Assembly (NCBI GenBank): GCA_949498175.1
Contig: CATDDF010000041.1
Location: 1,690-65,689 of the forward strand
Reading direction: 5' to 3'
Length of the DNA: 64,000 nucleotides
Source of the DNA: Alphaproteobacteria bacterium
Lineage (GTDB): Bacteria > Pseudomonadota > Alphaproteobacteria > RS24
Position 1 is the first letter of the stretch, and each line of letters begins with the position of its first letter. A program made the position numbers and the translations under genes. Shown here piece after piece: positions 45,465-64,000 of the stretch. The notes under the pieces are model-generated. The model was not told where the DNA came from and made no database searches. It worked only from the letters and a program-made list of their open reading frames with translations.

Positions 45465-47108
45465 ATGGGTGTTGACTGTATGAGTAGAGCCGAGGCGTTT
45501 CTTTCAGGTGCCGTGCAAATTGCCGGGCCGCTTTTGCGGCGCCAAGAGCGTATTGTGGCCGTCAAATTGCACCCGGATGCCGTTTCTGTGGTCCAATTAC
45601 ACCCGACTTTAGATGATTGGGAGATGGACCGGCTGGTCAGCTGGTCGCTGGAAAACGCCATTGGGCGCTCGCCGGTGCAGGATAATTTTTCCTATTTGGC
45701 CAATCAAATATCGGCGGCTGCGGAAGAGGCGGGGGTTGACGGCGTTGATGCGGGCATTTCCATTCCGCATTCGCTTTTCGATGTGCGGATTTTGCAACTT
45801 CCCTATATGGAAGAAGACGAGCTTGCCGATGAGGCCGATGAGCCTGAATTTTGGGAAGAATTTGACCCCGAGCTGAATAATCTGGTCGGCAAGGTGGTGC
45901 GCTATCAAATTCTTTATGCCAATGAGGGCGAAGATCGTATTGATGTGATGATTGCCAGCCTGCCGGTCGGTGAATTGGAGCGCTATCGCGCGTTAATGCT
46001 CGACGCCAATTTGATTCCGGTCTTTGTCGAGAATGAATTGTTCTCGCTGGTCAACGGCATTTATGCCCGCATGAGCACGGATGAGCGCTTCAAGCCGTTT
46101 TTCGTCATTCACTTGTGCCCCGGCAATAATCAGATTATTGCGCATTTTCGGGGCCGCATTTACATGCACAAAATCAATATTTCCGATTTCGACGAAGCCT
46201 TATTGATGGAATTGGAACGCATCGATGAGGTGGAGGGCGATTTTTGGGAAGAGGTCGCCATTCGCGTCAGCGAGCAAGTCAAACAGGCGATTGCCTTTTT
46301 GGTCGAGACCTATGATGTGCAGACCCCTGACAAAGTGTTTTTGGTCTCCGAATATCGCGAGATTGAGAATTTCTATTATCTGCTCGATAACCGCCTCGGC
46401 ATGGCGCGGGTGATTATTTATGATGCGATGGATGATGTTGATGTGCCAATTGAACATCAAAAATATGTCGATTTTTTCGCCAATCCGTCGATTTTCACAA
46501 CTGCCATCGGCTTGGCGACTCAAGGTTTGAATATTGAAGGCCGTGCCCATAATGATTTGCACAGCCGCCTGATTTCCATGAATTTTCTGGAAGATGCGCC
46601 GCGCATTAAACGCAATCGGCAATTGGCGGCGGTCAATCGCATTTTGTCGCTGGCCATTATGGCAGTGATTTTATTCTCCGGCACGGTGCTGGGTGTCAAT
46701 ACGGTGCCGGCCTATTTGCAAACGCGCGAAGCCTCGGCACAATATAGCGCGGCCGAAGGCGCGGCGCGCGCCGAGGCGCTGCGGCGCGACATTAATGAAA
46801 AGAAAATGGCCGAAATAAACGGCATCATTACCGATATTCGCGCCAATGCGGCCAATCGCGGCTATGGTATGTTTTTGACGCAATTACCGAGTCTCTTGCC
46901 GGTCGGGGCCGAATTGCAAAGGCTCGAAATTGACGAAAAACAGGGCGTCATTATGTCGGGTCTGGCGCTTGAAAACGCCGCCATTAATGAACTCAAAAGC
47001 AATTTGCGCAGCGCCAAAATATTGCGCCGCGACCCTAAAGTGGAAACCGAAAAAGACGGCGACTATTGGCGTTTCTCCATGACATTGGCCTTATCGAGGA
47101 TGCAGTGA
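45465..47108 (+). CDS. pilM: Type IV pilus alignment protein, PilM-PilN fusion
   Basis: N-terminal actin-like PilM-type region ending TAIGLATQG, then ISMNFL (INLLP-like), a TM segment, coiled coil and PilN-like domain (LPVGAELQRLEI...MSGLA); first gene of the pil operon. Confidence 0.65.
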   Translation: MGVDCMSRAEAFLSGAVQIAGPLLRRQERIVAVKLHPDAVSVVQLHPTLDDWEMDRLVSWSLENAIGRSPVQDNFSYLANQISAAAEEAGVDGVDAGISIPHSLFDVRILQLPYMEEDELADEADEPEFWEEFDPELNNLVGKVVRYQILYANEGEDRIDVMIASLPVGELERYRALMLDANLIPVFVENELFSLVNGIYARMSTDERFKPFFVIHLCPGNNQIIAHFRGRIYMHKINISDFDEALLMELERIDEVEGDFWEEVAIRVSEQVKQAIAFLVETYDVQTPDKVFLVSEYREIENFYYLLDNRLGMARVIIYDAMDDVDVPIEHQKYVDFFANPSIFTTAIGLATQGLNIEGRAHNDLHSRLISMNFLEDAPRIKRNRQLAAVNRILSLAIMAVILFSGTVLGVNTVPAYLQTREASAQYSAAEGAARAEALRRDINEKKMAEINGIITDIRANAANRGYGMFLTQLPSLLPVGAELQRLEIDEKQGVIMSGLALENAAINELKSNLRSAKILRRDPKVETEKDGDYWRFSMTLALSRMQ

Positions 47109-48316
47109 TGAGCGACATGCCCCTGTCCAATCTCAAGGCCGAAAAAACATTATCGCCGCAAGCGCGCAAATTACTTGCCGAATTATCGCTTGACGGTGCC
47201 CTATCAGCCGGTGAACCCGATGAGGAAATTGACATAAACGCGCTGACTTACGCGGTCCATGGCGGTGAGGCACCGGTCGATACGCCGGTCTTGCTTACCC
47301 CGCATGACGACCGCAAGGCTGCGGCTTTCGCCGATTTGCTGGGCCATATTGATGATGGCGGCGATATGATGCTGGTCGATGAAAAAGCCGCTTTGGCAGT
47401 GGCTGAGAAATATCGAAGCGAAAAACAAGCGGCGCATATTGCTTTTGACGAGAATGATTTGCTCGATGAATTTGCCGTCCATGAGGACGATGCGCCGCCG
47501 CCGCTTGATAGCGCGCTGGATGAGGCACCGACGGCGCTCACAGATGCGGAAATCGACGCGGTTCTGGGCGATGACCCATTTGGCGATGAGAGCGATGGCG
47601 AGGGTCAGAAAGCACCTAGCTTTGCAGGCCTGATGTCGCGCTTCCGCGCCGGTGCCGGCGGTGTCAAACGAATGATTGGCGTGCGCAATGCGGCCGCCGC
47701 CTATAACGCGCAGTCAGGGGCGTCGCTCTTACCTTTTACGATTATTCGCGCCATTGTTTTGGTTCTGGTGGCCGCCGTACCGCCGGCCGTCAATTTGGCC
47801 ATCATCCAGCCGCAAATTTCCGACAATAGTCGCAAGCTGACACAAATTCGCGGCTTTGAGGCGCAAATGGCGGAAAATAAGAAGGTCGCCGATAAGTTGG
47901 CCAAAAGGCTCTCGGCTTTGGAACAAGATGCCAAGCGGCGCATTGACAAGCTCATGCCCAATGTCGAACTGGAGCGCCTGTTCAATAGCTATGTGGCGGC
48001 TTTGCAAAAATATGATATCGACCTGCAGGGCTATAATGTTTCGGCCTTAAATGACCGCAAAGTGATTATCGGTAATCGCGTGCAGGAAGCCAGTCTGGTC
48101 GAACTTGATTTGGTCGGGCGCTATGATATTTATGTCGATATTCGTAAGATTTTTGTCGACCAGCTGAAAATCGCCACTGTGGTGAAGGAAACCATGATAC
48201 CGCAAGAAGGCAGCCCGCAATTGCAAATCAAAGCGAGCTTGATGGTGCCGACCAAGCGAGATTATGACGCTGAATTGGATGACCCGGCCAAGCAAACGGC
48301 GGGGGCCAAACCATGA
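47108..48316 (+). CDS. pilO: PilO-like protein with long acidic N-terminal extension
   Basis: TM (IVLVLVAAVPPAVNLAII), coiled coil and LMP...ELDLVGRY pattern of PilO; position after pilMN. Confidence 0.6.
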   Translation: MSDMPLSNLKAEKTLSPQARKLLAELSLDGALSAGEPDEEIDINALTYAVHGGEAPVDTPVLLTPHDDRKAAAFADLLGHIDDGGDMMLVDEKAALAVAEKYRSEKQAAHIAFDENDLLDEFAVHEDDAPPPLDSALDEAPTALTDAEIDAVLGDDPFGDESDGEGQKAPSFAGLMSRFRAGAGGVKRMIGVRNAAAAYNAQSGASLLPFTIIRAIVLVLVAAVPPAVNLAIIQPQISDNSRKLTQIRGFEAQMAENKKVADKLAKRLSALEQDAKRRIDKLMPNVELERLFNSYVAALQKYDIDLQGYNVSALNDRKVIIGNRVQEASLVELDLVGRYDIYVDIRKIFVDQLKIATVVKETMIPQEGSPQLQIKASLMVPTKRDYDAELDDPAKQTAGAKP

Positions 48317-49932
48317 TATTGCGCTGCGTAAAATGGATGGTGCTGTTGCCGTTTTTCGTAAATGGGGCGTTGGCGCAAGAAGCAGAACCTGCCCCATCGC
48401 CCGCGGCTCCTGTCGAAAAACTGGCGGCAGTGCAGGATATGGCAGCGGCTGACCCGCAAGATCCGTTTGTGCGCGGACTGAAAAGGTTGGATGAAAAATT
48501 GCGTCTGCAACGCGAAGCCGAAGAATTGGCGCGCCGTGCGTTGGAATTGCAGCGCGAGGCCGAGCGCCGTGCCGAACAAGAGGCGATGGGCATTGAGGCT
48601 GAAGATGAAGAGCTGATTGAGGAGGAAGAAATCGTCATTCCGGCGCCGATTTCCGATCCTGATTTTTTCACCGCTTTTGCGGCGCGCAAATATCGCCTGG
48701 ACGGTCTCGTATTGTCGCGACCGCAAAGCAAGCCGACCATCCATATTCTCGAGGAAGTGCGCAAACCCATAGGCGGCGATTTGTTTTGGTCGGGCCGAGA
48801 TCGGCGCTGGGTCTATATGCGCCGCAAGGGCGAAACTTTATCCTCCATTGCGCGCAAGTTGGTCATGCAAACAGCCGATATTCTGGCAATGAATAATGCG
48901 CTGCGCGAGAGCCAATTGCCTGATCCGATGCGCTTTTATGTCAGCCCGCGTGACAATGGCCCGCTGACCCATATTATTTTGCGCAGCGATACGCTGGAAA
49001 AACTGGCCAAAATTTATGACACGGATGTGCCGCGCTTGCGCGTCCGCAATGATTTGGGTGACGATGACAAGCTGGTTTTGGGGCGGCGTTTCCTGATTCG
49101 TGAAAAAGCCATTGACGACCGTCTGGCGCGCATGGCCGTGCCCAAGCCGCAAAAAATCGATGACAGTAAATTATCTATGGCGCGCCAGCCCTATGCGCGG
49201 CTTGGCCAATTTTCTGATGAGAAAAAAGCGATGCGTGGGGCACGCGAATTTTATGCCAAATATTATGAATTTATGGACAGCGATATTTCGCTGCGCCGCG
49301 AGCGCGATGATGCACAAAAAGGCAAAAGCTTTTACAATATGGATATCGGGCCTTTGCGCTCAGAGCGTCATGGCGAGGCCTATTGCGCTTTGTTCCGCAA
49401 AGATGAGATGCCGTGCATTGTTGTCTATCGTGTGCCGGGGCCAGAGCGGGCGCGCAATTTCGACAGCCAGGCAATTATCTCTGTCAGCCCTTATGTTTAT
49501 TTTGACGGCGATGATGAGCTTGATAGCGGGCGCACTGATGTGGCGCGTTTGACCAAGCTGGAATATTTCCTCACTGAAGGGCAAGAGCTTGGTAATGCCG
49601 ATGGCACGATTGCCAAGATTACCAATGACCGCATCATGTTGACCGATGCCAATGGCTATTTGCTGACCTTGCCACTCAATTATGTGCCGGAAGTCGATCC
49701 GGAAGAAAAACGCCGTGCAGCCGAGGCGGCACGCCAAGCCGCCATGCAAAAAGCCGCTGAGGCAGCGAGCGCAGCGGCCGAGGCAGCGGGCAATGTCGAT
49801 GTCGATGTGCCGGGTCCCGAAGATACGGCATTGGGCCAGCGATTGCAGAACAATGAAGCCAAACGCCGCGAAGGGTCGCAAGGCTTTATCAAAGCATTGG
49901 CCGAGAAACCCAAAAAGCTTGACGAGAAATGA
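48313..49932 (+). CDS. Exported LysM-LysM-SPOR-PilP-like multidomain protein
   Basis: Sec signal (…GALA|QE); LysM-like RKGETLSSIARK and LRSDTLEKLAKIY; SPOR-like YARLGQF…IGP…AYC; PilP-like TEGQELGNADGTIAKITNDRIML. Confidence 0.65.
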   Translation: MILRCVKWMVLLPFFVNGALAQEAEPAPSPAAPVEKLAAVQDMAAADPQDPFVRGLKRLDEKLRLQREAEELARRALELQREAERRAEQEAMGIEAEDEELIEEEEIVIPAPISDPDFFTAFAARKYRLDGLVLSRPQSKPTIHILEEVRKPIGGDLFWSGRDRRWVYMRRKGETLSSIARKLVMQTADILAMNNALRESQLPDPMRFYVSPRDNGPLTHIILRSDTLEKLAKIYDTDVPRLRVRNDLGDDDKLVLGRRFLIREKAIDDRLARMAVPKPQKIDDSKLSMARQPYARLGQFSDEKKAMRGAREFYAKYYEFMDSDISLRRERDDAQKGKSFYNMDIGPLRSERHGEAYCALFRKDEMPCIVVYRVPGPERARNFDSQAIISVSPYVYFDGDDELDSGRTDVARLTKLEYFLTEGQELGNADGTIAKITNDRIMLTDANGYLLTLPLNYVPEVDPEEKRRAAEAARQAAMQKAAEAASAAAEAAGNVDVDVPGPEDTALGQRLQNNEAKRREGSQGFIKALAEKPKKLDEK

Positions 49933-49974: not shown

Positions 49975-51732
49975 ATGGTTGAGTATACCAAAGATGTGGC
50001 AGATCGCGTGTTGCGTATTCTTCGAGCCAGCGGGCAGATTGAAGAAGGCAGAATGACCGAAATCATGGTGCAGGCGGAGTCGCGCTCGGCGCGCGCGCTC
50101 AGCCTTATCATGCAAGGGGTCAGCGACCCTTATGATGAGGGCGAGAAATCGCAGCCGCTGGTCGAAGAAGAATTGGTGGTCAATATTTTGTCGCGCGCCT
50201 ATGCGCTCAGGCGCAAAAACCTCGCTCCCGGCGATGTCTCCGCCGAAGCCTTGACCTCGCTGCCGAAAGATATGATTGAGCGCGAGCATATTTTACCCTT
50301 TGCCCGTGAGGGGCGGTTTTTGCGCGTCGCGACGGTCGACCCGACCAAAGCGACCTTGGCCAATCAAATCAAGGCTTTGAGCAATCAGAATGTCGAGTTT
50401 TTTCTCATCAAGCCGAGCGAATTCAACGCCTGTATGGGGCATGAAGAAGTGCAAAGCGCTTTGGGACAGAAAAAAGAAGAAGCCAAAGCCGCCGCGCCTG
50501 CCCCCGAAGCGGCGCGCCCGCAGCCGCGCAAGCGCTCAAGCTATGATATTGATGACCCCAGCGTGGTGATTAAATTTGTTGATGATATTTTGCATCAATC
50601 AGTGATTACCGACACCAGTGACATTCATGTCGAGCCCTATCGTGAGACGGCACGCATACGCTTTCGCATTAATGGTGTGCTGGAAGCGCAAGATCAGTTT
50701 TCTGAATTTCTTTTTCACAATTACCTTGCCGTGGTTACGCGCTTCAAAATTCTTGCCGATTGCGATATATCGGAAAAACGCTTGCCGCAAGACGGAGCCA
50801 TTACCTTTAAGGCACCTGATGGAGAAGATGTCGATACGCGCTTTAATGTGCTGCCCGGCAAAAACGGCGAGCGTATTTGTATCCGCCTGCTGAAAGGCGA
50901 CCCGTCACTATCGATTGATAAAATCGGCTTTAAGGAAGCGGATTTGCAAAAGCTTATCGATGCCATTACTGCGCCGCAGGGTATGGTGCTGGTAACCGGC
51001 CCGACCGGTTCGGGCAAAACGACAACGCTCTATGGCGCGTTGCAATATATTAATGATCCGGGCACCAATATTATGACGGCGGAGGATCCGGTCGAATATT
51101 ATCTCGAAGGTTTGGGGCAGACGCAGGCCAATGAAAAAATCGGCCTGTCTTTTTCTTCCATATTGCGCGCCTTTTTGCGGCAAGATCCGGAGGTTATTCT
51201 GGTCGGCGAGATTCGCGACCAAGAGACGGTTGAGATTGCCGTCAAAGCGGCTTTGACCGGCCATTTGCTCTTATCAACCTTGCATACCAATGACGCGATT
51301 GCGACCATATCGCGCCTGCTCAATATGGGCGTACCGAGTTTTATGATTTCCGCCGCTTTGTCGCTTGTTGTGGCGCAGCGTTTGGCGCGCAAAAACTGCC
51401 CCGATTGTCTCGTGCCCGACGATACGGCAAACCCTGCCGCGCTGAAATATATCGGTTTCACCGATGAAGAAATTCAAAGCTTCCAGCCGAAAAAGGGCAG
51501 CGGTTGCGCGAGCTGCGACGGCAGCGGTTATAAGGGGCGGCAGGGCATTTATGAGGTCTTGCGCGTCACACCTGAGGTCGAAGAGGCGATTTTGAAACAG
51601 GCCCAAGCACCGGAAATTTTGGAGGCGGCGCGCGTTGATAATTTCATGACCATGCAAGAAGTCGGACGCGATTATATTCGCGATGGCGTGTTATGTTTGG
51701 AAGAGTTTACACGCGTATTGGTAGTCAATTAA
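49975..51732 (+). CDS. pilB: Type IV pilus extension ATPase
   Basis: SDIHVEP, EKRLPQDG, GPTGSGKTT, AEDPVEY, LRQDPEVI, GHLLLSTLHTN and tetra-Cys CPDC/CASC. Confidence 0.93.
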   Translation: MVEYTKDVADRVLRILRASGQIEEGRMTEIMVQAESRSARALSLIMQGVSDPYDEGEKSQPLVEEELVVNILSRAYALRRKNLAPGDVSAEALTSLPKDMIEREHILPFAREGRFLRVATVDPTKATLANQIKALSNQNVEFFLIKPSEFNACMGHEEVQSALGQKKEEAKAAAPAPEAARPQPRKRSSYDIDDPSVVIKFVDDILHQSVITDTSDIHVEPYRETARIRFRINGVLEAQDQFSEFLFHNYLAVVTRFKILADCDISEKRLPQDGAITFKAPDGEDVDTRFNVLPGKNGERICIRLLKGDPSLSIDKIGFKEADLQKLIDAITAPQGMVLVTGPTGSGKTTTLYGALQYINDPGTNIMTAEDPVEYYLEGLGQTQANEKIGLSFSSILRAFLRQDPEVILVGEIRDQETVEIAVKAALTGHLLLSTLHTNDAIATISRLLNMGVPSFMISAALSLVVAQRLARKNCPDCLVPDDTANPAALKYIGFTDEEIQSFQPKKGSGCASCDGSGYKGRQGIYEVLRVTPEVEEAILKQAQAPEILEAARVDNFMTMQEVGRDYIRDGVLCLEEFTRVLVVN

Positions 51733-51741: not shown

Positions 51742-52974
51742 ATGACGTTTTATGTTTATGCCGGGCTGCAGGGTAAGAAAAAAGTAAGAGGCCAGATTGA
51801 AGCCAATAGTATGGCGCGCGCGCGATCGGCTTTGCGCCAGCAGCGCATCAAGGTCAAAAAAATCAAAGAGATTAAAGAAAAGAAAAAAAGCGCGCTCGAT
51901 ATTCAAATCACATGGGGCCCGTTCGGGTCGATACCGAGCAAGGAAATCCTCATGTTCACCAAGAAATTATCGACCATGATACGCGCCGGTCTACCGATTT
52001 TGGACGGGTTGATCATGGTGGCAGGGCAGACCAAAAACCCCAATATGAAGCGCGTGACGCAACAAATGATTTCCACACTCAATGACGGTAAGCCCCTCTC
52101 GGAAGCCTTTAAGGAGCATGACCGGCATTTTGACAATGTTTATCGCAATATGATTGAGGCCGGCGAAGTGTCGGGTATGCTCGATAAATTCATCGATAAG
52201 CTGGTGGAAATTCTCGAGAAGCAGCAAAAAATTAAAGCCGGAATCAAATCGGCCATGTTTTATCCGGTGACATTGATTACCGTCTCGGTCGGCATTTCCA
52301 TTTTCATGCTGACCAATGTGGTACCGACATTCCAAGAAATGTATGCCGGTATGGGCATTGCGTTGCCCGGCCCGACCCAAGCCATTGTCGATGCCAGTAA
52401 TTGGATTGCCGATATAAATAATGTGCTGGGCGTGTTTGCCGTGGTGTTCGGCATTATTGCCTTTCATAGCCTGATGACCAAATATGTGCGTCCTTATCGC
52501 TTTTTATGGCACTTGCTTTTGCTCAAAATGCCCCTGTTTGGCGGCATTATCATGATGGCGGTGGTGGCGCGCTCATCTTTGCTCATGGCCAATCTGTTCG
52601 CCGCTGGCGTCAGCGTGCTGGAAACTTTAACCGTGGCGTCAACCGTGACCACCAATGTGCATTTCATGGGGGCGTTTGACCGCGTCAAACGCGATGTCAT
52701 GACCGGCGCTGAATTGTCATCGCTTTTCGCCAAGGAGAAAGTTTTTCCGATTGAGTTGTCGCAGCTCATCGCAGTCGGCGAGCGCACCGGTAATATGGAA
52801 GAAATGCTCAATTCCATCGCCAATTATTATGAAGAAGAATTTGACGCGCTGGTGGAAGGTCTGTCGACGGTAATCGAGCCGGTGATGATTGTTTTTGTCG
52901 GCGGTCTTATCGGTATGATGGTGGTGGCTTTGTATCTGCCCATCTTCTCAGCCGGTGATTTGGCCGGCGGTTAA
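51742..52974 (+). CDS. pilC: Type IV pilus platform protein
   Basis: Two GspF domains, AGEVSG, KSAMFYP, GERTG and IEPVMIV..ALYLPIF. Confidence 0.93.
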   Translation: MTFYVYAGLQGKKKVRGQIEANSMARARSALRQQRIKVKKIKEIKEKKKSALDIQITWGPFGSIPSKEILMFTKKLSTMIRAGLPILDGLIMVAGQTKNPNMKRVTQQMISTLNDGKPLSEAFKEHDRHFDNVYRNMIEAGEVSGMLDKFIDKLVEILEKQQKIKAGIKSAMFYPVTLITVSVGISIFMLTNVVPTFQEMYAGMGIALPGPTQAIVDASNWIADINNVLGVFAVVFGIIAFHSLMTKYVRPYRFLWHLLLLKMPLFGGIIMMAVVARSSLLMANLFAAGVSVLETLTVASTVTTNVHFMGAFDRVKRDVMTGAELSSLFAKEKVFPIELSQLIAVGERTGNMEEMLNSIANYYEEEFDALVEGLSTVIEPVMIVFVGGLIGMMVVALYLPIFSAGDLAGG

Positions 52975-52975
52975 G

Positions 52976-53215
52976 CTAGCCGATCGGTTCGGTCGGTTCG
53001 CCTTCGCCGCACCAATCATCTTCAAATGTTTTTGGCCAGCTGGTGCCGGTATCGGCATCATCGGCAATAATGGCCGGGGCGGGCGCTTTGCGGCGGCACA
53101 GCCCCTCGGGCGTTTTGGTCGGGCGGGCAATCATATGCGCGTCCCAAAACCGACAATGGCGGCAATGGACAATCGGCACGGGCGCAACAGGTGGGGCAAA
53201 ATCGCTATCACTCAT
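52976..53215 (-). CDS. Small four-Cys hypothetical protein
   Basis: C-x2-C-x18-C-x28-C with GLC and DWCGE. Start 53215 or 53236. Confidence 0.6.
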   Translation of the reverse strand: MSDSDFAPPVAPVPIVHCRHCRFWDAHMIARPTKTPEGLCRRKAPAPAIIADDADTGTSWPKTFEDDWCGEGEPTEPIG

Positions 53216-55237: not shown

Positions 55238-57200
55238 GCTATTGTTTTTGCCGGGTACGGCGCAGGCGCAATTAACCGCGCTCTTATTGGCCTCGGCCGC
55301 GTCCCCCGTGGCGCTGACCATGGCCTATTTTATCGATATGCGCGCTTTTATTTTATGGTTGCTCATGTGGCCGGTCACGCTGATGCCGCGGCGTTGGTGG
55401 CGTACGGTTTTTCTTCTGGCCCTTATCCCGTTCATGCTGGCGGTCTTGGCACAATTGGCGCGCCCGCCGCAAGCGCCCTATTTCATGCTGGTTATTTTGG
55501 TCTTATCCGTATGTGAACAGGTCGGCGAAGACGGGCGGCCCGGTGCCTTTAATCTCATCGGCGTCATTTTTCCGGCGCTTTGCGTGATGGTTTTATCGAC
55601 CAATGTATTTGTTTTTTTGCTGCTTTTGCTGGCAGTGATATTTTATGCTGGGGTTTATACTTTGCGCATTAATGATATGCCGCTTTCAGGCCTGCGCATC
55701 CGCCTGTTGCCGATTGTATTGGCTTTGTCGGGCTCACTGTTTTTTGCCATTGCCGCTTTCATTCTCATGCCGCGCATTAACCCCGCTGCCATTCCCGGCC
55801 TGGTTGCACCGCAAGCCTCAAGCGGGGTCGGGGAGCGCCTCGATATGGGGCGCTTTTCGGAAGTCATATTAAATGGCGACGATGCATTTCGCGCTTTTGT
55901 CGACGCCCCCTTGCCGCAAGAAGATTTATACTGGCGGGTTCATGTTTTGGGGCTGATGGAGGGGGCAAGCTGGCTGCGGGACCCGCGCCGCGACAGTCAA
56001 ATCGGTGCTTTGCCTTTTGACAAAAGGCTGGGCCGCGTTGACCGGCGATTGCGTTATGGCGTTCGTCATGCACGCCCAGCACCCGATTGGCATCCTGTGC
56101 TGGGCGTGGCCTTGGCACCGCGTATTGATGAAAATGCGCGGCTCAATCGGTTTGGCGAATATGTCAAACAAACGCGTCGCAGCGTGCTGAAACAACAAGT
56201 GGTGATGCAATCCAGTATCGATAATCCTTATCGCGCCAATGTGCCTCATATGTTGCAAATCACCGGCCAAGCAAGGCTGACTGCGTGGGCACGAGAAAAA
56301 TATGCCGCCGTTGGTTCGCGCCGCGCCTTTATCGATATGATGCTGGCTCATTTCGCGTCCGGCGATTATCAATATACGCTGCGCCCGCAAGCCTTGACCG
56401 GCCCACCGGCCCAGCGTTTGGATAATTTTTTCTTTAATACGAAAAACGGTTATTGCAGCCATTACGCCATGGCTATGGCAACGGCGCTCCGCGCGGCCGG
56501 CATTCCGGCCAATGTGATTATCGGTTATCAGGGCGGCGAGTGGAACGGGTTCGGGCAATATTACCGCATCCGCCAATCGGACGCCCACGCTTGGGTGGAA
56601 GCGGAAATCGAGCCCGGGCAGTGGCTGCGCCTCGATCCGACTCAATTTGTGCCAAGCGGGGCGAGCCGTTTTCAAAGCCGCCAATTTGCCGCCACAAATA
56701 TTGAAAACCAGCCCGGCTGGCGCGGCGCTGTGGCACGCAGCTTGCAGCGGGTCGATGCATTTGTGGTGCGCTTGAGCAGCGATATTGTGCTTTATGATGA
56801 ACAGGCCCGCCGCGAATTATTGTCGGGCACGGTATTGGGTCGGCTGCTCTCATTTATCAGTTTTTGGCTGTTTGCCAGCCTCGCTTTGATTGTGCCACTG
56901 TTTTTGTGGCGTTGGTGGGTACGGCGCGATGTGATGGTGCGGCTCGACCGGCAATTTCAAGCCCTAGCTCGAAAAGACGGCTTGCAGCGCGCCTTCCATG
57001 AGGGACGCATGGATTTTGCCCGTCGCTGGGCGAAAAAAATGCCGCTTCTGGATGATCATGTGCAGCGCTTTGCCGAGATATTTTGCCGTCTGACTTATGG
57101 GCCCCCCATTGCAAAAAGTGATAGGCGTGCGGCGCAAAGCCTGATGAAACAACACTTGCAGCTTATCCGGCGCGCGCGACGGCAAATCGGCATGCGCTAA
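55215..57200 (+). CDS. tgpA: Transglutaminase TgpA family membrane protein (DUF3488 plus transglutaminase core)
   Basis: Multi-TM N-terminus; catalytic triad GYCSHYA, DAHAWVE and LDPT. Confidence 0.85.
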   Translation: MLWREHNRLLFLPGTAQAQLTALLLASAASPVALTMAYFIDMRAFILWLLMWPVTLMPRRWWRTVFLLALIPFMLAVLAQLARPPQAPYFMLVILVLSVCEQVGEDGRPGAFNLIGVIFPALCVMVLSTNVFVFLLLLLAVIFYAGVYTLRINDMPLSGLRIRLLPIVLALSGSLFFAIAAFILMPRINPAAIPGLVAPQASSGVGERLDMGRFSEVILNGDDAFRAFVDAPLPQEDLYWRVHVLGLMEGASWLRDPRRDSQIGALPFDKRLGRVDRRLRYGVRHARPAPDWHPVLGVALAPRIDENARLNRFGEYVKQTRRSVLKQQVVMQSSIDNPYRANVPHMLQITGQARLTAWAREKYAAVGSRRAFIDMMLAHFASGDYQYTLRPQALTGPPAQRLDNFFFNTKNGYCSHYAMAMATALRAAGIPANVIIGYQGGEWNGFGQYYRIRQSDAHAWVEAEIEPGQWLRLDPTQFVPSGASRFQSRQFAATNIENQPGWRGAVARSLQRVDAFVVRLSSDIVLYDEQARRELLSGTVLGRLLSFISFWLFASLALIVPLFLWRWWVRRDVMVRLDRQFQALARKDGLQRAFHEGRMDFARRWAKKMPLLDDHVQRFAEIFCRLTYGPPIAKSDRRAAQSLMKQHLQLIRRARRQIGMR

Positions 57201-58876
57201 AAAGCGAAAACCAAATCAAGCCGATTGCGCCCGTCATCATGCCACCAGCGTGCCTCATCGGTGACTTCCTGAATGAGATGCGTGCCCAAGCCGCCATCGC
57301 GAACATCATCGAGATTGCGCGGTTTGACTTTCTCCAAATCGATGAGAGGGGCCGTATCGGTAATGCTGACATGTAATTTTTGCTCGGCCATATAGCCGCC
57401 GATTTCAATGCGCCCGCTCATATTTTCCGGAAAGGCGTGGCGGATGATATTTTGCGTCGCCTCATCTACTGCAAGGCAAATATTCATGATGATGCCGCGC
57501 GCCGGGGTTTCGCTCAAAGCGGCTTCAATCTCTCGCCGCAAGCGGCGCAATTCCGGTATTTCATTGGTGACGGAAATAGTGAACAAAAATTGCTCGCCTG
57601 CCAGTGACGGCTCAACAATATTGGTCTGACTAAGGGTGGCCGCCACTTGCTGCGGCGCGCAGCCCAAACCCAAAAGCGTTAAATCATCGGATAAATGGTC
57701 GGCTTTTTGGCGCACCACATCTACCGTATGACCGACCTGGTCAGCAATGGAAAACTGCATTTGCTCGGCCAAAATGGTGGCCAGCTTGGTCGCCCCCAGC
57801 ATGGAACCGTTAATCTCAGCTTCGGTTATGCCGTCGGAATAGCAAAAAAACCGCGCCGCTTCGAGACTGTGATGTTCGACCTCAATATCATGTGGCGCAA
57901 AATCCAATATGCCCAATGGCTGAAGGCTGGCTTCAACATAGGAAAAGCCGCCTTTGCGATCGACAATCAGTCCCGGTTCATGGCCCGCATTGCAACATTG
58001 CATGGCACCGCTTTCGGGGTCGTATTGGCCGATAATGGCGGTCACGAACATGCCGTTAAAAGCGGTTTCCACCAATTCGCCATTCATCCGCGCCGCCAAT
58101 TCATTGACGGCGGGCAGGGCGCGGCTCAGCGAGCGAAACAGGCTGTGGGTTTTGGCCATGACCAAAGCGGCATCCGTGCCCTTGCCCGAAACATCGGCCA
58201 TGCAGAAATAAATCTGCCCGTTGCGCGACACATAATCATATAAATCGCCCGATACGCCTTTCTTCGGCACATTGACGCCGTGAATAAAGTCAAATTCGGC
58301 ATTGGGAAACAGGCTTTCCTGCACACGCGACGCCATTTGCAAATCGCGTTGGATGGTGTCGGCCTCGACCATGCGCTTGGCCATTTGTGAATTGGCCAGC
58401 GCCAAAGCGGCGCTTTTTCCGTAAACCGAAACAAGGGCGGCATCATCGTCGCTGAACAAAGCGCCATCGAGACGGTTGATGAGCTGCAGCGCGCCGAAAC
58501 GTTTGCCATTGCCCGATACGGGCACGCAAATCATCGACTTGGTTTCAAAGCCGGTTTTGGCATCTACCGCGCCGGTAAAGTCACTGTCTTCGGCGGTGTT
58601 GCGCACATAACGCATTTCATCGCTCTGCGTTACCGCGCCGACAATGCCTTGCCGTGACGGCACTTCCAAACCGGTTATGTCGGTCGGGCCGATACAGGCT
58701 TCGCACCGTAAAACATCAGCTTCTTCATGCAGCATGAAAAAGCTCGCCGCCTCGGCACCGATCTCTTCGCGAATATAATCAAGCCCCTCATAAAGGGTTT
58801 GCGCCATGTCAGAACTGGAGGCAAAGGCCGACATCATGCGGTAAACAATATCGAGTTGTTTATTGGCCTCCGGCAT
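57197..58876 (-). CDS. GAF-PP2C(SpoIIE)-HATPase partner-switching phosphatase/kinase
   Basis: GAF (SMICVP..GALQLIN); PP2C GDLYD, ADVSGKG, NAGH, SDGITE and DDLTL; RsbW-like DEATQNIIRH and GGLGTHLI. Confidence 0.88.
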   Translation of the reverse strand: MPEANKQLDIVYRMMSAFASSSDMAQTLYEGLDYIREEIGAEAASFFMLHEEADVLRCEACIGPTDITGLEVPSRQGIVGAVTQSDEMRYVRNTAEDSDFTGAVDAKTGFETKSMICVPVSGNGKRFGALQLINRLDGALFSDDDAALVSVYGKSAALALANSQMAKRMVEADTIQRDLQMASRVQESLFPNAEFDFIHGVNVPKKGVSGDLYDYVSRNGQIYFCMADVSGKGTDAALVMAKTHSLFRSLSRALPAVNELAARMNGELVETAFNGMFVTAIIGQYDPESGAMQCCNAGHEPGLIVDRKGGFSYVEASLQPLGILDFAPHDIEVEHHSLEAARFFCYSDGITEAEINGSMLGATKLATILAEQMQFSIADQVGHTVDVVRQKADHLSDDLTLLGLGCAPQQVAATLSQTNIVEPSLAGEQFLFTISVTNEIPELRRLRREIEAALSETPARGIIMNICLAVDEATQNIIRHAFPENMSGRIEIGGYMAEQKLHVSITDTAPLIDLEKVKPRNLDDVRDGGLGTHLIQEVTDEARWWHDDGRNRLDLVFAF

Positions 58877-58880
58877 AAGC

Positions 58881-59612
58881 TCAGCCGAACGTGCCCGGCG
58901 TGAAGCCCCCTCCGCCGCCGCTCTGCTCATCATTGTCAGAAGCCGGGGCTTTCGGCGGCGGGCTTGCCGCTTCGGGGGCGGTTTCAGGCGCGGCTTGCGG
59001 TGCGGGCGCCTGCGGTTCGCTGGCGGTCACCGGCTCACTTTGCGGCGCGTCGACCATTTCTGCCTTATTGCCGTCGTCTTCGTCCATAGGGTCATCCGAC
59101 ATATCGTCAGTCGGCGCATCGCCGCCCGACATTTCGTTACCGGCCATATCGCCGCTTGCCAGGGCGGCAATCAAATCATCATCTTCCGAGGCCGCGCTCG
59201 CCGAATCTTCGCTTAAGGCTGTAGGGGCGACCTCTGATGCCAAAGCGCTGTCGGCTTCGCCGGTTTTGGAAAACACATCGACATCGACCAATTGGGCTGG
59301 TCCGGAAACCGCCTTAATGGGCAAAATCTTGTCCAATTTGGCCAATTGCAAGACGCGCATGGCTTCATCGCTCATATTGGAAATGGTGAAATCTATCTGC
59401 TTTTGCTTGCAGATTTGCATGGCGATGACCAAAATCGACACACCTGAACTGTCCAAATAGCTGATATTGGCGGCATCAACGGTCAAACTGGTAGCATCTT
59501 CGATTTGACTGGTAAGCTGGGTTTTTATCTCCGGGGTGACCTCTAAATCAATATCACCTGCAAGTGTAAGTGTAATATTATCACCACGGTCGCGTCTGAA
59601 TTGAAAAGCCAT
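58881..59612 (-). CDS. STAS anti-sigma-factor antagonist with long acidic C-terminal tail
   Basis: LAGDID…, phospho-site YLDSSG and VLQLAKLDKIL, followed by ~135 aa of D/E/A/P/S-rich sequence. Confidence 0.85.
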   Translation of the reverse strand: MAFQFRRDRGDNITLTLAGDIDLEVTPEIKTQLTSQIEDATSLTVDAANISYLDSSGVSILVIAMQICKQKQIDFTISNMSDEAMRVLQLAKLDKILPIKAVSGPAQLVDVDVFSKTGEADSALASEVAPTALSEDSASAASEDDDLIAALASGDMAGNEMSGGDAPTDDMSDDPMDEDDGNKAEMVDAPQSEPVTASEPQAPAPQAAPETAPEAASPPPKAPASDNDEQSGGGGGFTPGTFG

Positions 59613-59769: not shown

Positions 59770-60333
59770 ATGAACATTCGCGCAAATAGCGAAAGAGGCT
59801 TTAGCCTTATTGAACTTCTGGTTGTTGTTGCGATTATTGGTGTTCTGGCCGCCGTCGGCGTTGTCGGTTACCAAGGTTACATTGACAGCACGAAAAAATC
59901 TGTGACTGAGAATAACAGTAAGGCGGTTCATCAGTGGCTGCTTAATGCTAAGACTATTCGCTCTGCTGGCATTGATGTTGATCCAAGCGAGTGCACACAA
60001 GCCAATCTGGCTGGTACGACAGACTCTGCTACGGCCGTTGCGCCAGGTGGCTGTTTTGCAGGTCTTGGCTCCGAGGGTCACCCTTTTGAAACATTCAAGA
60101 ATCCGTATAATCAATCGCGCTCGGGTGACGCTACAATTTTGGCTACATCGAGCACTGCGGAAGTTGTAGACGACACTACCGCTTGTGTTGATCTCCTTGC
60201 TGGTGCCGAGGATGGCGATGTTCTGATCCGCGTCAGCGGCACGGTTGCCCATATTGACGTGTATTACTGCTCAAAAGTAGACGGCACTTCTGGTATCCTT
60301 AATAAAATGTCAAATACAATTACCAATTTCTAA
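59770..60333 (+). CDS. pilA: Type IVa major pilin
   Basis: Short leader MNIRANSERG|FSLIELLVVVAIIGVLAAVG, four Cys, strong AGGAG RBS, T-ending codon bias and its own terminator. Confidence 0.88.
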   Translation: MNIRANSERGFSLIELLVVVAIIGVLAAVGVVGYQGYIDSTKKSVTENNSKAVHQWLLNAKTIRSAGIDVDPSECTQANLAGTTDSATAVAPGGCFAGLGSEGHPFETFKNPYNQSRSGDATILATSSTAEVVDDTTACVDLLAGAEDGDVLIRVSGTVAHIDVYYCSKVDGTSGILNKMSNTITNF

Positions 60334-60353
60334 GTTGTGATTTATTGATTTTG

Positions 60354-60386
60354 AGAGCGCCGTGTTCGCACGGCGCTCTTTTTTTT
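60354..60386 (+). terminator. Strong Rho-independent terminator after the pilin
   Basis: AGAGCGCCGTG-TTCG-CACGGCGCTCT followed by a T tract. Confidence 0.9.
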
Positions 60387-60397
60387 GGGGCATGCAT

Positions 60398-62188
60398 ATG
60401 GCTTTGTCAGCTTTTGCCAAAACACCGCTGTTCTGGAGCATTTTATTGCTTTTTGGCGTCGCGTTTAACCATCACGTGCCGGATTTAGGCGAGACTTATG
60501 TGAGCCGCAATTTGTCTGCTTGGACGGCCATGTGTCTGAGCCTCATCCTGTTATGGTGGCGGCCTTTCAAACAAGGCGTCATTGCCTGGTCGCCCCTATG
60601 GTTGGCAGGGCTTTTATTACCGGCCATGGGTGGCTTATTTGTGCTCGTCGTCAATATTTTGGGTGGTTTTGAGCATTTTCACATCGGCCATTATTTCTTG
60701 CCGATTATTTTACTGACTTTTGCTCTATTTGTGCTTGGCTTGCTGCAATATGGCGATGAGGTGCCGGATTTAAGCCTCATCATTATCGTTATTTTTGTGG
60801 CTTTTCTGCCGCAATATCTGGTCTATCTGGCGCTGCAGAACCCGATATTCGATATTTTCGCAGCAGATATTTCCAGCCAAATTTCACCCCTTTTTACCAA
60901 GCCCTCTGCCGGTTTCGGGCAATATAATCTGCTCGGCTCTTTCGTGGCGACGCTTTTGATCCTGGCCGCCGCCGCTTTTGTTTTGCAGCCCGTGACGCGC
61001 GCGCGGCGCATTATTTTGGCGCTGATACTCATCGCCCTTACCGTCGATTTGCCTTTTGTAAGAAGCAAAACGGCGCTTTTGGGCGTGGTTTTGGCGGCGG
61101 CGGCGCTCGCTTTGCATATTATTGTGCGAAAGCCGACCCGTCCGCTTGTTCGGCGATTGGCGCTTGCCATCGGCCTTATTTTTGTGACCTATTTTGGCGT
61201 CATTGCCTTGGCCGGTGTTTTCGGTTTTGAGAAAGAATTGGCGTCACGCTCGATTGAAGCCAATCAATCCTCTTTTTCGACGCGGTTTGCCATGTGGGTG
61301 ATCGGCTTTTGGGGTTTCACGGAAAACCCGATTTTCGGGCACGGGCTGGGCAGCTATTTGACCCTGTATATGGAGCATTACGGGCGCTACGGCGTGGCTG
61401 AAGGTTTGACCTTTTATAAATTGGTCACCATCCCGCATAATCTGTTTATCCATATTTTGAGCGAAACCGGCCTGTTCGGTCTTGTGGTCATTACGGGGCC
61501 ATTTATTTGGCTGGGCGCGCACTTGCTCCGCCAGAACGATAATCGCTGGCTGCTGCTTGCTTTTCTATTGCCGATTTTGCTGCACACGCAAGTGGAATAT
61601 CCCTATATCGCATCGGGTGCTCATTATTGGCTGTTCGGCCTCGCTTTGGTCTTGGGCCAGATGAATGGCAGAGAAGATTTAAGCTTGCGCCGCTCGGCTT
61701 TGCCGCACCGGTTGATGGCGCGTTTTGCCTTTGCAGGCCTCACGGTCTATGCGCTTGCCGGCTCTATCGTCACGGTCATTCTCATCGCCGATATGCGCCG
61801 CGCAGCACTTGCTTTTGCGCGCGCCAATCAAATGCCATTGGCACAATTTATCGATTACCGAGCCAATGCGCCGGATTTGCAGCATCCGATTTTTGCCAAA
61901 AGACTGAATGCCGTTACCAATTTGCAATTGATTGATAAAATTTTTGCCGAAAAACGCTTTGAACTTTTGCGCCCGCTGGCGCTGCCTTATTTCGAGACGC
62001 AGGTTTTGAAAGACTATCCGACGCCGCCGATTTGGGAAAAAGCCATGCAGGTCTATGCGGTGCTGGGGGAAGACGAAAAACTTTTGGCCGTAATCGATAA
62101 AATGGCGCTATATGAGCCGGCGCGCGCGGCGCAATTTCGCGTACAATTTGAACTTTACCGACGCGAAAAAGCTACTCATCCTCAATAA
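60398..62188 (+). CDS. pglL: PglL/TfpO-like O-oligosaccharyltransferase (Wzy_C family)
   Basis: Multi-TM; FGQYNLLGS, RFAMW...PIFGHGLGSY, PHNLFIHILSETG and HTQVEYP; immediately downstream of the pilin. Confidence 0.78.
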   Translation: MALSAFAKTPLFWSILLLFGVAFNHHVPDLGETYVSRNLSAWTAMCLSLILLWWRPFKQGVIAWSPLWLAGLLLPAMGGLFVLVVNILGGFEHFHIGHYFLPIILLTFALFVLGLLQYGDEVPDLSLIIIVIFVAFLPQYLVYLALQNPIFDIFAADISSQISPLFTKPSAGFGQYNLLGSFVATLLILAAAAFVLQPVTRARRIILALILIALTVDLPFVRSKTALLGVVLAAAALALHIIVRKPTRPLVRRLALAIGLIFVTYFGVIALAGVFGFEKELASRSIEANQSSFSTRFAMWVIGFWGFTENPIFGHGLGSYLTLYMEHYGRYGVAEGLTFYKLVTIPHNLFIHILSETGLFGLVVITGPFIWLGAHLLRQNDNRWLLLAFLLPILLHTQVEYPYIASGAHYWLFGLALVLGQMNGREDLSLRRSALPHRLMARFAFAGLTVYALAGSIVTVILIADMRRAALAFARANQMPLAQFIDYRANAPDLQHPIFAKRLNAVTNLQLIDKIFAEKRFELLRPLALPYFETQVLKDYPTPPIWEKAMQVYAVLGEDEKLLAVIDKMALYEPARAAQFRVQFELYRREKATHPQ

Positions 62189-63209
62189 CGATAAGCCCCT
62201 GTTTTTCCAACTCATCGACATATTTTTCCATCGTAATCATGCCGAATTGCGCGCCGGTTTGCATGACGGTGGCAATTTGTGGAATTTTGTCTTCGCGAAT
62301 GAGGTTTTTCACCGCCGGCACGCAGACCATGACCTCAAATGCGCCGATGCGCCCGCCGCTTTTGCGTTTCAAAAGTTGTTGCGTCATCACCAATTGCAAA
62401 GAGGATGCAACCATAGAGCGCGCTTGCGGCTGCTCTTCGGCAGGAAATGCATCAATAATGCGGTTAATGGTTTCCGCCGCTCCTGATGTATGCAGCGTGC
62501 CGAAAACCAGATGGCCGGTTTCAGCTGCCGTCAGGGCCAATGAAATGGTTTCATAATCGCGCATCTCGCCGAGCAGCAAAATATCCGGATCTTCGCGCAA
62601 AGCGCCCTTCAGGGCGGATGCAAAGCTCACCGTATCGCGCCCGACTTCGCGCTGCGAAATAATCGATCTTATTTCCGAATGGACAAATTCGACAGGGTCT
62701 TCAATGGTGATGATATGCTCGGCGCGCTCGCGGTTGATTTTATTGATCATCGAGGCGAGCGAGGTTGATTTACCCGAACCGGTGGGGCCGGTGACCAGCA
62801 CCAAACCCTTTTTTTCCCCCAAAACCGTATGCACGGCCGGCGGCAGACCGAGCTGATCAATATTCGGCACTTCGGTGACAATGGTACGGCAAATCAAACC
62901 CCAGCCATTAAGTGTGTGATAGCCATTGGCACGAAAGCGCGCCCCGTTCACCGTGATGGCAAAATCGACGTCTTTCTTCTCGTCAAATATCTCATAAAGT
63001 TCATCGCCCAATTCATGGCGAAACACACCGTCCAACATATCATGGGTAATCGGGCAATCTTGCATGACGTTAATTTCACCATTGACGCGAATGGCCAGCG
63101 GACTGCCGGAACGCATATGAAAATCGGAAATGCGATATTCTTTCGGCAATTCGTCGAGATAGCGATAAACCGGATTATCGATGGGGGCGGGTTTTTCGGC
63201 TTCGGACAT
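62172..63209 (-). CDS. pilT: Type IV pilus retraction ATPase
   Basis: SDFHM, GPTGSGKST, TIEDPVEF, LREDPD, GHLVFGTLHT and AVKNLIRE. Confidence 0.95.
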   Translation of the reverse strand: MSEAEKPAPIDNPVYRYLDELPKEYRISDFHMRSGSPLAIRVNGEINVMQDCPITHDMLDGVFRHELGDELYEIFDEKKDVDFAITVNGARFRANGYHTLNGWGLICRTIVTEVPNIDQLGLPPAVHTVLGEKKGLVLVTGPTGSGKSTSLASMINKINRERAEHIITIEDPVEFVHSEIRSIISQREVGRDTVSFASALKGALREDPDILLLGEMRDYETISLALTAAETGHLVFGTLHTSGAAETINRIIDAFPAEEQPQARSMVASSLQLVMTQQLLKRKSGGRIGAFEVMVCVPAVKNLIREDKIPQIATVMQTGAQFGMITMEKYVDELEKQGLIVIEDE

Positions 63210-63330
63210 ATTCAGCTATGGCTCAACATTATGACTCTACACGACATTAGAATACCTGTTTATACTGGGGCTTCTGAAATTTGGCCAGAGCCTAAGTGCG
63301 GCACGGCCCTAACTGTTGCGGGTTGTCGCC

Positions 63331-64000
63331 ATGAGTGATGGCTTTCCATTTTTGATATTTTTGGCGGCGATTGGCGGCTGTCTCGGCAGTTTTGCCAATG
63401 TTGCCGCTTTGCGCAGCCTGTCAGGCGAGGATTGGATCAAACAGCCCTCAGCCTGTTTTCATTGCGGTCAGCGCCTCGGTTTTTTCGACAATTTACCGTT
63501 TTACGGCTTTCTGCGTCATGGCGGACGCAGCGCCTGTTGCGGGCAAGTGCTGCCGCGGCGCTATCTTTATGTCGAATTGGCCATGGCGGGGCTGGTCGTG
63601 CTTGCTTGGCAACAATTGGACAGCATGGTTTTTGCCGTATTTATCCCCTTTATCCTATTGATGGTGATTATTTTCCTGACCGATATGGATGCTTTCATCA
63701 TCCCCGATTGGGCCTCTTTGGGGGGTGCCGCTTTGGGTTTTGCATTGGCGCTTTTGGGCGCCCCGGGGGTGCCCGCTTTGCCGCACGCGGCGCTTGGCGG
63801 TATTGCCGGTTTTCTGCTGATTTACCTGATTAATGCGGCTTATAAATTATGGCGCGGCCATGACGGCATAGGCTTTGGCGATGTCAAATTAATGGCCATG
63901 CTGGGCATTTGGTTGGGGCCGGTCAGCCTGCTGCCGATTCTCTTTGCCGCCAGTTTGAGCGGTGCGTTTATCGGTATTGTCGCTATTTTGGCAGCGCGTG
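63331..64000 (+). CDS. pilD: Prepilin peptidase (3' partial; not in ORF track)
   Basis: MSDGFPF…GSFANV…CFHCG…ACCG…VE; catalytic Asp motifs IFLTD and GIGFGDVKL; runs off the window end. Confidence 0.9.
   Translation, partial: MSDGFPFLIFLAAIGGCLGSFANVAALRSLSGEDWIKQPSACFHCGQRLGFFDNLPFYGFLRHGGRSACCGQVLPRRYLYVELAMAGLVVLAWQQLDSMVFAVFIPFILLMVIIFLTDMDAFIIPDWASLGGAALGFALALLGAPGVPALPHAALGGIAGFLLIYLINAAYKLWRGHDGIGFGDVKLMAMLGIWLGPVSLLPILFAASLSGAFIGIVAILAAR

Follow-up and report, generated by a model that had tools for sequence, protein, structure and literature searches.

The 64,000-nucleotide stretch analysed here (the window) corresponds to positions 1690 to 65689 of contig CATDDF010000041.1 (C41) in a 1.68-Mb genome that is 92.6% complete; the host is an uncultured marine alphaproteobacterium of the Parvibaculales (PS1-type) with a streamlined genome (~1.7 Mb). 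Listing of the open reading frames (ORFs), Pfam and NCBIfam scans, and onward reading along the contig revealed a complete pilus locus of ~27.5 kb, which starts at position 45465 and includes genes past the end of the window (Table 1). An earlier interpretation of the window, made from the DNA alone (the sequence-only reading), had listed a block running from pilMN, in which pilM is fused to pilN, to the prepilin peptidase gene pilD, and each gene in that list was present and intact in its place. It had overlooked an 86-residue four-Cys gene on the minus strand and had described pilQ and the minor pilins as not visible. The latter are outside the window but not absent, since pilQ and three pilin-like genes lie 0.6 to 5 kb past its end on the same contig. 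All pil-locus frames in the window are open, and the signature motifs that were checked are intact (the PilB tetracysteine, PilT AVKNLIRE, STAS DSSG, and pilin G/FSLIE, the slash marking the cleavage site). We consider it likely that the region makes up the left two-thirds of one intact locus of ~27.5 kb for a type IVa-like, retractable pilus with a remodelled alignment complex and partner-switch control.

Table 1. Features of the pilus locus, in window coordinates. Positions beyond 64000 are window-equivalent and were read onward along the same contig; start codons were refined from alignments and from the start-codon positions of relatives.
Feature	Position	Strand	Basis and remarks
PilM-PilN fusion (PilMN)	45465-47108	+	547 aa; Pfam PilN at residues 470-541
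PilO homolog	47108-48316	+	402-416 aa; ~200-aa extension; fold match to PilO
Secreted protein with coiled coil, two LysM, SPOR and PilP(GspC-HR)-like domains	48313-49932	+	539 aa; PilP position; Pfam LysM, Foldseek
PilB extension ATPase	49975-51732	+	MshEN N-domain; T2SSE 4.7e-119; tetracysteine motif
PilC platform protein	51742-52974	+	Two T2SSF domains; best NCBIfam model is Myxococcus-type PilC
Four-Cys small protein	52976-53236	-	86 aa; coding-type conservation in intergenic alignment, tblastn
MoxR-type AAA+ ATPase	53317-54258	+	Pfam AAA_3 7e-56, AAA_lid_2
DUF58-like membrane protein (weak label)	54269-55237	+	PF01882 E = 0.024, 14 bits, sub-cut-off
TgpA-type membrane transglutaminase-like protein	about 55215-57200	+	Pfam TgpA_N, Transglut_core, DUF4129
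GAF-PP2C-RsbW-like kinase fusion	57197-58876	-	Pfam GAF, SpoIIE 8.5e-35, HATPase_c_2 3.4e-17
STAS protein	58881-59612	-	Pfam STAS 4.6e-15, STAS_2; DSSG; divergent from pilA
PilA major pilin	59770-60333	+	Pfam N_methyl; 10-aa leader, G/FSLIE, four Cys
Intrinsic terminator after pilA	60353-60380		12-bp stem and T8 run
Wzy_C/Wzy_C_2 O-oligosaccharyltransferase-like membrane protein	about 60392-62188	+	TfpO/PglL position; Wzy_C 9.5e-15
PilT retraction ATPase	62172-63209	-	TIGR01420 415.6 bits (cut-off 319)
PilD prepilin peptidase	63316-64110	+	Cut by window end at 64000; Pfam A24_N_bact, Peptidase_A24
DUF2497-like protein	64194-64592		132 aa; sub-threshold DUF2497 match
PilQ secretin	64615-67632		1005 aa; Secretin domain 1.6e-26
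Pilin-like gene 1	67589-68050	+	
Pilin-like gene 2	68054-68572	-	
Pilin-like gene 3	68569-69159	-	
Small transmembrane protein	69140-69751	-	
Metallo-beta-lactamase-fold (MBL) protein	69806-70618	-	
CHASE2 class III cyclase	70643-72952	-	

The locus encodes the core parts of a retractable type IVa pilus (T4aP), namely PilB with PilC, PilT, PilQ, PilA, and PilD, along with three minor-pilin-like proteins. The best matches of PilB in the PDB are the T4aP PilB proteins of Geobacter and Myxococcus (388 bits), ahead of Thermus PilF (326 bits) and GspE (308 bits), and the protein carries the CxxC...CxxC tetracysteine motif. The pilT gene is the sole copy in the genome by tblastn, as is pilD, and it lies within the pilus locus in Parvibaculales, SAR116, and SAR11. 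The best PDB match of PilQ is Neisseria PilQ. The protein is unusually long and begins with a lipobox-like signal (ending NVYGC), and its N-terminal ~650 residues are coiled-coil and low-complexity yet conserved within Parvibaculales; no AMIN, N0, or Secretin_N match was found with Pfam. PilA, with 177 residues, four Cys, and a strong terminator behind its gene, is typical of an abundant fibre subunit, and its N-terminus is conserved in SAR116 and SAR11 pilins. One of the three downstream pilin-like proteins lacks Glu5, as do PilX/GspK-type minor pilins.

The same proteins bear on whether the locus might instead encode a machine resembling a type II secretion system (T2SS) or the mannose-sensitive hemagglutinin (MSH) system, that is, a secretion pseudopilus or a nonretractile fibre in which PilMN would be GspL- or MshI-like and its peptidoglycan-binding partner GspA/B-like. 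PilB and PilC do score nearly equally on the GspE and GspF models, the database name of the homolog from the isolate IMCC14465 mentions a GspL cytoplasmic domain, and the locus holds only three minor-pilin-like genes (the T4aP core has four), with no PilY1-like adhesin seen there. Nevertheless, PilT is above its family cut-off and in-locus in all three lineages, the best matches of PilB and PilQ are T4aP structures, the PilMN profile matches PilM and PilN (see below), and the major pilin has the character of a fibre subunit. The pilus locus also lacks what defines a T2SS (a GspC-M set with GspL and without PilT), and a complete, canonical gspC-D-E-F-G-(H/I)-J-K-L-M-N operon with separate GspL and GspM occupies another contig of the genome (C80:11700-22269), so the pilus locus is not the T2SS of this cell. 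We therefore regard the T2SS/MSH-like interpretation as quite improbable. Because the best matches of PilB, PilQ, and PilT agree and a separate T2SS is encoded in the same genome, the T4aP assignment is well supported by sequence comparison. The operon on C80 presumably uses the single PilD of the genome, which is encoded in the pilus locus.

The alignment subcomplex of this T4aP is remodelled. Four separate PilM, PilN, PilO, and PilP proteins were not found; all four domains are recognisable, with PilM and PilN fused and the PilP-like domain carried inside the SPOR/LysM protein. PilMN proceeds from a cytoplasmic actin-like PilM domain through an INLLP-like linker motif (ISMNFL) and a transmembrane helix to a periplasmic PilN domain, and its full-length homologs are single chains of ~540 residues. 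In profile searches, the PilMN family matched Myxococcus xanthus PilM (1.9e-9) and PilN (0.063), and a SAR11 homolog matched Pfam PilM_2 and PilN; hhalign found no relation between PilMN and the GspL of the same genome. On these grounds the fusion is assigned to the PilM/PilN type, and its likeness to GspL is architectural alone. In the T2SS assembly of GspL, GspM, and GspC, GspL likewise corresponds to PilM and PilN in one chain (PMC10191384), and the fold of the GspC homology region (HR) resembles the C-terminal domain of the PilP-like protein described below, but the pilus-locus proteins have no detectable homology to the GspL or GspC of their own genome.

The next two proteins were identified from AlphaFold2 models, which were built from alignments of 20 to 21 sequences (pLDDT ~70 overall and 80 to 95 in folded domains) and compared with the PDB using Foldseek. 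The top matches of the first are PilO proteins, from M. xanthus (3jc8_O, E 7e-6) and Pseudomonas aeruginosa (2rjz, target TM-score [TMt] 0.61, prob 1.0). Its model places a transmembrane helix, a long coiled coil, and a domain of ferredoxin-like fold after ~200 disordered acidic residues predicted to be cytoplasmic, and its gene is kept at the equivalent position in Parvibaculales and SAR116. As judged from the model, the protein is a PilO with a cytoplasmic extension of ~200 residues. The sole element of this tail kept across both orders in a Parvibaculales/SAR116 alignment is an N-terminal LSxxAxxLL helix. A FliM-like motif in the tail (LTDAEIDAVL) was considered and rejected, as it is conserved in the closest relatives only.

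In the model of the second protein, the tandem LysM domains match 4uz2 (prob 1.0) and the SPOR domain matches RlpA (6i09, TMt 0.68) as well as CwlC and DedD. A small C-terminal beta domain resembles the HR domain of PulC (6hcg_e, TMt 0.56, prob 0.82, E 0.17), which in the T2SS corresponds to the C-terminal domain of PilP. The core conserved with SAR116 homologs is made up of the SPOR and C-terminal beta domains together with a DDPFxRG motif; the SAR116 proteins lack the LysM pair, which in that comparison reads as a Parvibaculales-specific insertion. In the SAR11 homolog, two LysM domains are present and Pfam PilP matches weakly, below threshold.

These features suggest how the subcomplex could operate. 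Peptidoglycan-binding domains tied to the secretin or the alignment complex are found in TsaP and FimV (LysM) and in the AMIN region of PilQ. Here, in contrast, such domains are covalently joined to the PilP-like domain, and SPOR, not AMIN, is the conserved module. The PilP-like protein would dock the secretin via its HR-like domain and bind peptidoglycan via SPOR (and, in this lineage, LysM), tethering the trans-envelope machine to the cell wall in place of the PilQ AMIN or TsaP/FimV LysM anchors. It is put forward as the tether because no peptidoglycan-binding domain was detected in the secretin (no AMIN by Pfam). With PilM and PilN in one chain, the contact between a PilN peptide and a separate PilM would no longer be needed, and the PilO tail may provide a new cytoplasmic docking site.

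Compared with the canonical T4aP of P. aeruginosa, M. xanthus, and Neisseria, the functional parts, the best matches of PilB, PilQ, and PilT, the PilO fold, the PilM and PilN domains, and the short-leader pilin are alike. The differences are that PilM and PilN form one polypeptide, that PilO has its cytoplasmic extension, that the PilP-like domain resides in a secreted, non-lipoprotein SPOR/LysM protein, and that PilQ is 1005 residues long with a lipobox-like signal and no detectable AMIN. In addition, there are three minor-pilin-like genes, and PilY1, PilU, a PilF/Tgl pilotin, and a Pil-Chp system are all missing from the locus. The proposal of a rebuilt T4aP alignment complex in the sequence-only reading thus holds for the PilM-PilN fusion, the extended PilO, and the joining of a PilP-like domain to SPOR and LysM, but the architecture is not wholly undescribed.

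Full-length PilMN homologs (42 to 92% identity) occur in marine metagenome-assembled genomes (MAGs) labelled Rhodobiaceae, Parvibaculales, Parvibaculaceae, or PS1 clade and in isolate IMCC14465, and distant homologs (25 to 31%) in Puniceispirillales, the SAR116 group. Seven of 401 sampled alphaproteobacterial genomes contain the fusion, three of them being, by their cluster names, HIMB114-type Pelagibacteraceae (SAR11 IIIa) of 1.2 to 1.3 Mb. When 1.84 billion representative proteins were searched with the PilMN profile, 184 clusters matched at E <= 1e-10; most of the longer matches span nearly the whole profile in single chains of ~530 to 620 residues, and the few named ones are alphaproteobacterial. 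Loci of the SAR116 type, with gene order as in Puniceispirillaceae MAGs, are also held by MAGs titled Myxococcales, Halieaceae, and Acidimicrobiaceae (L042, L046, and L047); these are probably mis-binned contigs and not a wider distribution.

Parvibaculales genera, even those at only 45 to 47% PilMN identity, share a collinear gene order between pilMN and the CHASE2 cyclase, and the sole variable gene in these loci is the one for the O-oligosaccharyltransferase (O-OTase)-like protein. SAR116 loci have a different order, in three blocks: RsbW-like kinase, GAF-PP2C, STAS, pilA, and pilT; Sel1-repeat protein, pilD, pilQ, pilMN, pilO', pilP', pilB, pilC, and CHASE2 cyclase; and tgpA with a DUF58-like gene. 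In SAR11 IIIa, pilT is adjoined by an RsbW-like kinase gene, and a second block contains pilMN, the LysM-PilP-like gene, pilQ, pilB, pilC, and minor pilins. The internal modules are therefore syntenic with pil genes in Parvibaculales and SAR116, the opposite of what the sequence-only reading had named as grounds for abandoning its view. Its further claim that the locus has internal modules of its own is supported by linkage for the partner switch and weakened for the triad of MoxR, DUF58-like, and TgpA genes, which is unlinked in one genus and of which TgpA was not found in another.

The loci of SAR11 and SAR116 resemble the one described here in their PilM-N fusions (21 to 31% identity, profile E as low as 1e-71), a PilP-position protein with LysM and/or SPOR domains, the conserved pilin N-terminus, and STAS/RsbW-type genes beside pilT and pilA. 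They also differ from it: in SAR11 IIIa, the interval from the fusion to the LysM-PilP-like gene showed no separate gene of PilO size, the secretin is short (542 residues), and neither the TgpA triad nor a CHASE2 cyclase was seen nearby, whereas SAR116 lacks the LysM insert and has the rearranged order. In the Parvibaculales version, the triad is inside the locus and PP2C and kinase are fused. In a 2026 bioRxiv preprint about pilus loci of Pelagibacterales (10.64898/2026.10.07.757358), "the PilM-PilN fusion protein" is already annotated, as are an anti-sigma antagonist and its RsbW kinase. Our literature search yielded no published description of the PS1 or SAR116 locus, a SPOR/LysM-PilP fusion, or linkage of a cyclase with a GAF partner switch. 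The candidate "undescribed system" of the sequence-only reading is not wholly undescribed: the core recurs in SAR116 and SAR11, and for SAR11 the fusion and the STAS/RsbW genes have been annotated. The locus is a lineage-specific variant of the T4aP, which SAR116 and SAR11 also have, and not a machine of a new kind.

The second distinguishing feature is the signalling module. By its domains it is an Rsb-type partner switch, with a PP2C phosphatase, an RsbW-like kinase, and a STAS protein with a conserved serine. In PDB searches, the GAF domain matched best to cyclic-nucleotide-binding GAFs (PDE2A GAF-B, 1.5e-16, and CyaB2) and the PP2C-kinase part to Rv1364c and RsbW; in other genera and in SAR116, GAF-PP2C and kinase are two separate genes. 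The STAS protein combines a DSSG phospho-serine motif with an acidic low-complexity tail of ~140 residues, and its gene adjoins pilA in Parvibaculales and SAR116. No sigma factor gene was found in the locus or its flanks. The CHASE2 cyclase has the metal-binding motif FCDIRGFT and the motif DKYIGD, and we take the Lys of the latter to suggest ATP specificity; the enzyme is probably an adenylate cyclase.

Conserved linkage, co-loss, and domain similarity form the basis of a proposed cascade, which is suggested by the type of GAF domain and the motifs of the linked cyclase. The CHASE2 membrane cyclase (probably an adenylate cyclase) would make a cyclic nucleotide that is sensed by the GAF domain of the PP2C phosphatase/RsbW-like kinase, and the phosphatase and kinase would in turn determine whether the STAS protein is phosphorylated on its DSSG serine. 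With no sigma factor encoded nearby, the acidic-tailed STAS protein itself is proposed as the output, and the switch would set pilus activity or pilA expression. Among STAS-output switches, the HsbR/HsbA system of P. aeruginosa and the SypE/SypA system of Vibrio are similar. In Nostoc, hormogonium motility that depends on type IV pili requires the HmpU/V/W partner switch, whose output is the STAS protein HmpV (PMC6495340). The present module shares with these switches a PP2C phosphatase, an RsbW-like kinase, a single-domain DSSG STAS protein, and the lack of a nearby sigma factor. Unlike those switches, the module described here has a GAF input in place of a receiver domain, a fused kinase and phosphatase (in this genus), a STAS protein with a long acidic tail, a location within the pilus locus, and linkage to a CHASE2 cyclase. 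It is possible, and we suggest it tentatively, that PS1, SAR116, and perhaps SAR11 share a dedicated second-messenger circuit for the pilus, in which cAMP or cGMP made by the CHASE2 cyclase would be read by the GAF switch and the STAS protein would directly bind the motor or the cytoplasmic face of PilM-N/PilO and gate extension or retraction post-translationally without a sigma factor. On this view, further maturation factors specific to the machine would be supplied by the MoxR/TgpA triad and the four-Cys protein.

Patterns of gain and loss relate these modules to the pilus. Among 58 genomes from 14 genera of the order, pilMN is present in 36, TgpA in 33, the cyclase in 34, and PP2C in 31, largely in the same genera; five genera lack all four, save for a single TgpA fragment, found in a bin that is 5% contaminated. 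The partner switch and the cyclase come and go with the pilus, and so, less strictly, does TgpA. In one complete genome from the same genus, the locus is decayed (L075, G453:C1:1518000-1537999) and has undergone at least three separate deletions. PilMN residues 3 to 57 there abut STAS residues 1 to 21, with pilMN through PP2C gone; pilQ and two minor-pilin genes are also gone, and the MBL and CHASE2 genes are separately truncated. The pilA, O-OTase-like, pilD, and DUF2497-like genes remain, and pilT is probably frameshifted. Survival of pilD and the DUF2497-like gene is consistent with pilus-independent roles, with PilD also serving the T2SS. In IMCC14465 (L032, ALYF01000003.1), the only cultured PS1 relative seen, pilB is truncated to a 177-residue ORF and pilC and the PP2C gene are lost, so this isolate is probably non-piliated, as predicted from its genome. 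The MAG PS1 MED-G50 (L031) has lost pilB through pilT and most of the genes from pilQ to the cyclase. Taken together, the gain/loss and decay patterns argue that the switch and the cyclase functionally belong to the pilus; for the TgpA triad, the case is less strong.

Such losses in a same-genus genome, IMCC14465, and MED-G50 could also mean that the locus in the window is itself a decaying or silent remnant without present function. This is very improbable, because every gene in the window is a full-length open frame with intact motifs, pilMN is kept in 17 of 19 genomes of the genus and in 9 of the 14 genera, and the proteins are conserved across orders, which implies purifying selection.

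A more serious alternative is an ordinary divergent T4aP with hitchhikers, in which the triad, the O-OTase-like gene, the four-Cys gene, and perhaps the cyclase are unrelated envelope or accessory genes on a flexible island, coming and going with it. The MoxR/DUF58/transglutaminase triad is a widespread stand-alone module, and no pilus link was found for it in the literature. In the genus of IMCC14465, the triad is not in the pil locus and a 39%-identical TgpA is encoded on another contig, while in genus g317 TgpA was not found. The O-OTase-like gene is variable, and because the linked modules lie side by side, functional co-loss can be mimicked by one deletion or transfer event. Against this, TgpA with the DUF58-like gene, the cyclase, and the switch again lie beside pil genes in SAR116 in another order and orientation, no clear TgpA, cyclase, or PP2C homolog occurs anywhere in the genomes of genera that lack the pilus, and in the decayed locus the cyclase was struck by a truncation of its own. 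We hold the hitchhiker explanation to be unlikely, while giving it appreciable weight.

The unlinked or missing TgpA, the contiguity of the modules, and the small set of minor pilins with no PilY1-like gene seen in the locus count against our interpretation of the locus as an intact T4aP with a remodelled alignment complex and its own control and accessory genes, and further observations do so as well. PilB scores 533 bits on its best NCBIfam model, TIGR02538, which is under the cut-off of 675, and PilC is likewise under its equivalog cut-off, so the pilus system is a divergent one. Neither the PilO homolog nor the PilP-like protein gave a sequence match to PilO or PilP in Pfam, NCBIfam, or profile searches against the PDB, and fold search alone succeeded. 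The PilP-like label, which comes from a modest fold match (prob 0.82, E 0.17) and the sub-threshold Pfam match of the SAR11 homolog, is among the weakest links, as are the GAF ligand and the cyclase specificity, which are read from similarity and two motifs only. Within the triad, MoxR and TgpA are clear; the middle gene has only a sub-cut-off PF01882 match (E = 0.024) and occupies the position of DUF58 in known triads. Related genomes are not independent samples, and shared ancestry limits the statistical weight of the co-occurrence counts. Finally, the C-termini of pilins show no pattern with O-OTase presence, being alike with or without the gene, and PilA ends in TITNF, with no C-terminal Ser and no clue to a glycosylation site.

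The O-OTase had been counted by the sequence-only reading as a modification gene belonging to the system, a view that the variability of the gene among relatives weakens. Three of five complete relatives have it in-locus, one of these copies with a TGA; the loci of the other two lack it, as does the L033 locus of the IMCC14465-type genus. The protein scored 30 bits on the TfpM model (cut-off 600) and had no PDB match. Given its place directly after pilA, it could be an optional pilin glycosylase, and it may have an O-antigen-ligase role.

The MoxR/DUF58-like/TgpA triad and the four-Cys protein are probably lineage-specific accessories that act on the envelope or on machine maturation, a weaker proposal than those for the core. 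The four-Cys protein (C25, C28, C47, and C76, in HCRHCRFW...GLC...DDWCGE) is predicted to be cytoplasmic, with no signal peptide, and had no Pfam match to a known family. By tblastn, it is encoded between pilC and moxR in 19 Parvibaculales loci (65 to 90% identity) and is found at 39 to 42% identity in two SAR116 loci (L050 and L045), at the partner-switch end in L050. Its Cys spacing recalls, to us, HiPIP-type iron-sulfur proteins. A plus-strand candidate at the same place, orf109 (52955-53284), was rejected as the shadow of the conserved minus-strand gene, as seen in the intergenic alignment. In every Parvibaculales locus the DUF2497-like gene separates pilD from pilQ, and it survives where the pilus genes decay; DUF2497 is, we believe, the C-terminal domain of PopZ.

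PS1, SAR116, and SAR11 are among the most abundant surface-ocean heterotrophs, and their genomes are heavily streamlined. That such genomes keep a locus of ~27 kb suggests that the pilus is ecologically important. Possible roles include adhesion, attachment to particles or hosts, uptake of DNA or nutrients, staying in suspension, and service as a phage receptor. As for competence, ComEC and DprA are encoded in the genome and ComEA was not clearly found; this is uninformative about the role of the pilus, since non-competent control genomes carry both ComEC and DprA too. The basic picture of type IV pili is unchanged, and parts of the architecture were already annotated in SAR11. Even so, a natural single-chain PilM-N in a PilT-containing system bears on the origin of T2SS GspL, a PilP-like linker that itself carries a peptidoglycan anchor is of interest to pilus biology, and the proposed coupling of pilus control to a cyclic-nucleotide cyclase by way of a GAF partner switch is a testable one.

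An Rfam scan of the locus found no riboswitch, and its matches were solely sub-threshold, small RNA-like ones that coincide with the pilA terminator. To the left of the locus (42298-45272) lie phoU and genes for a response regulator of the PhoB type, a DsbA-like protein, and a dioxygenase of the TauD family. The last of these, tauD, is convergent on pilMN and forms the conserved left border in most Parvibaculales loci.

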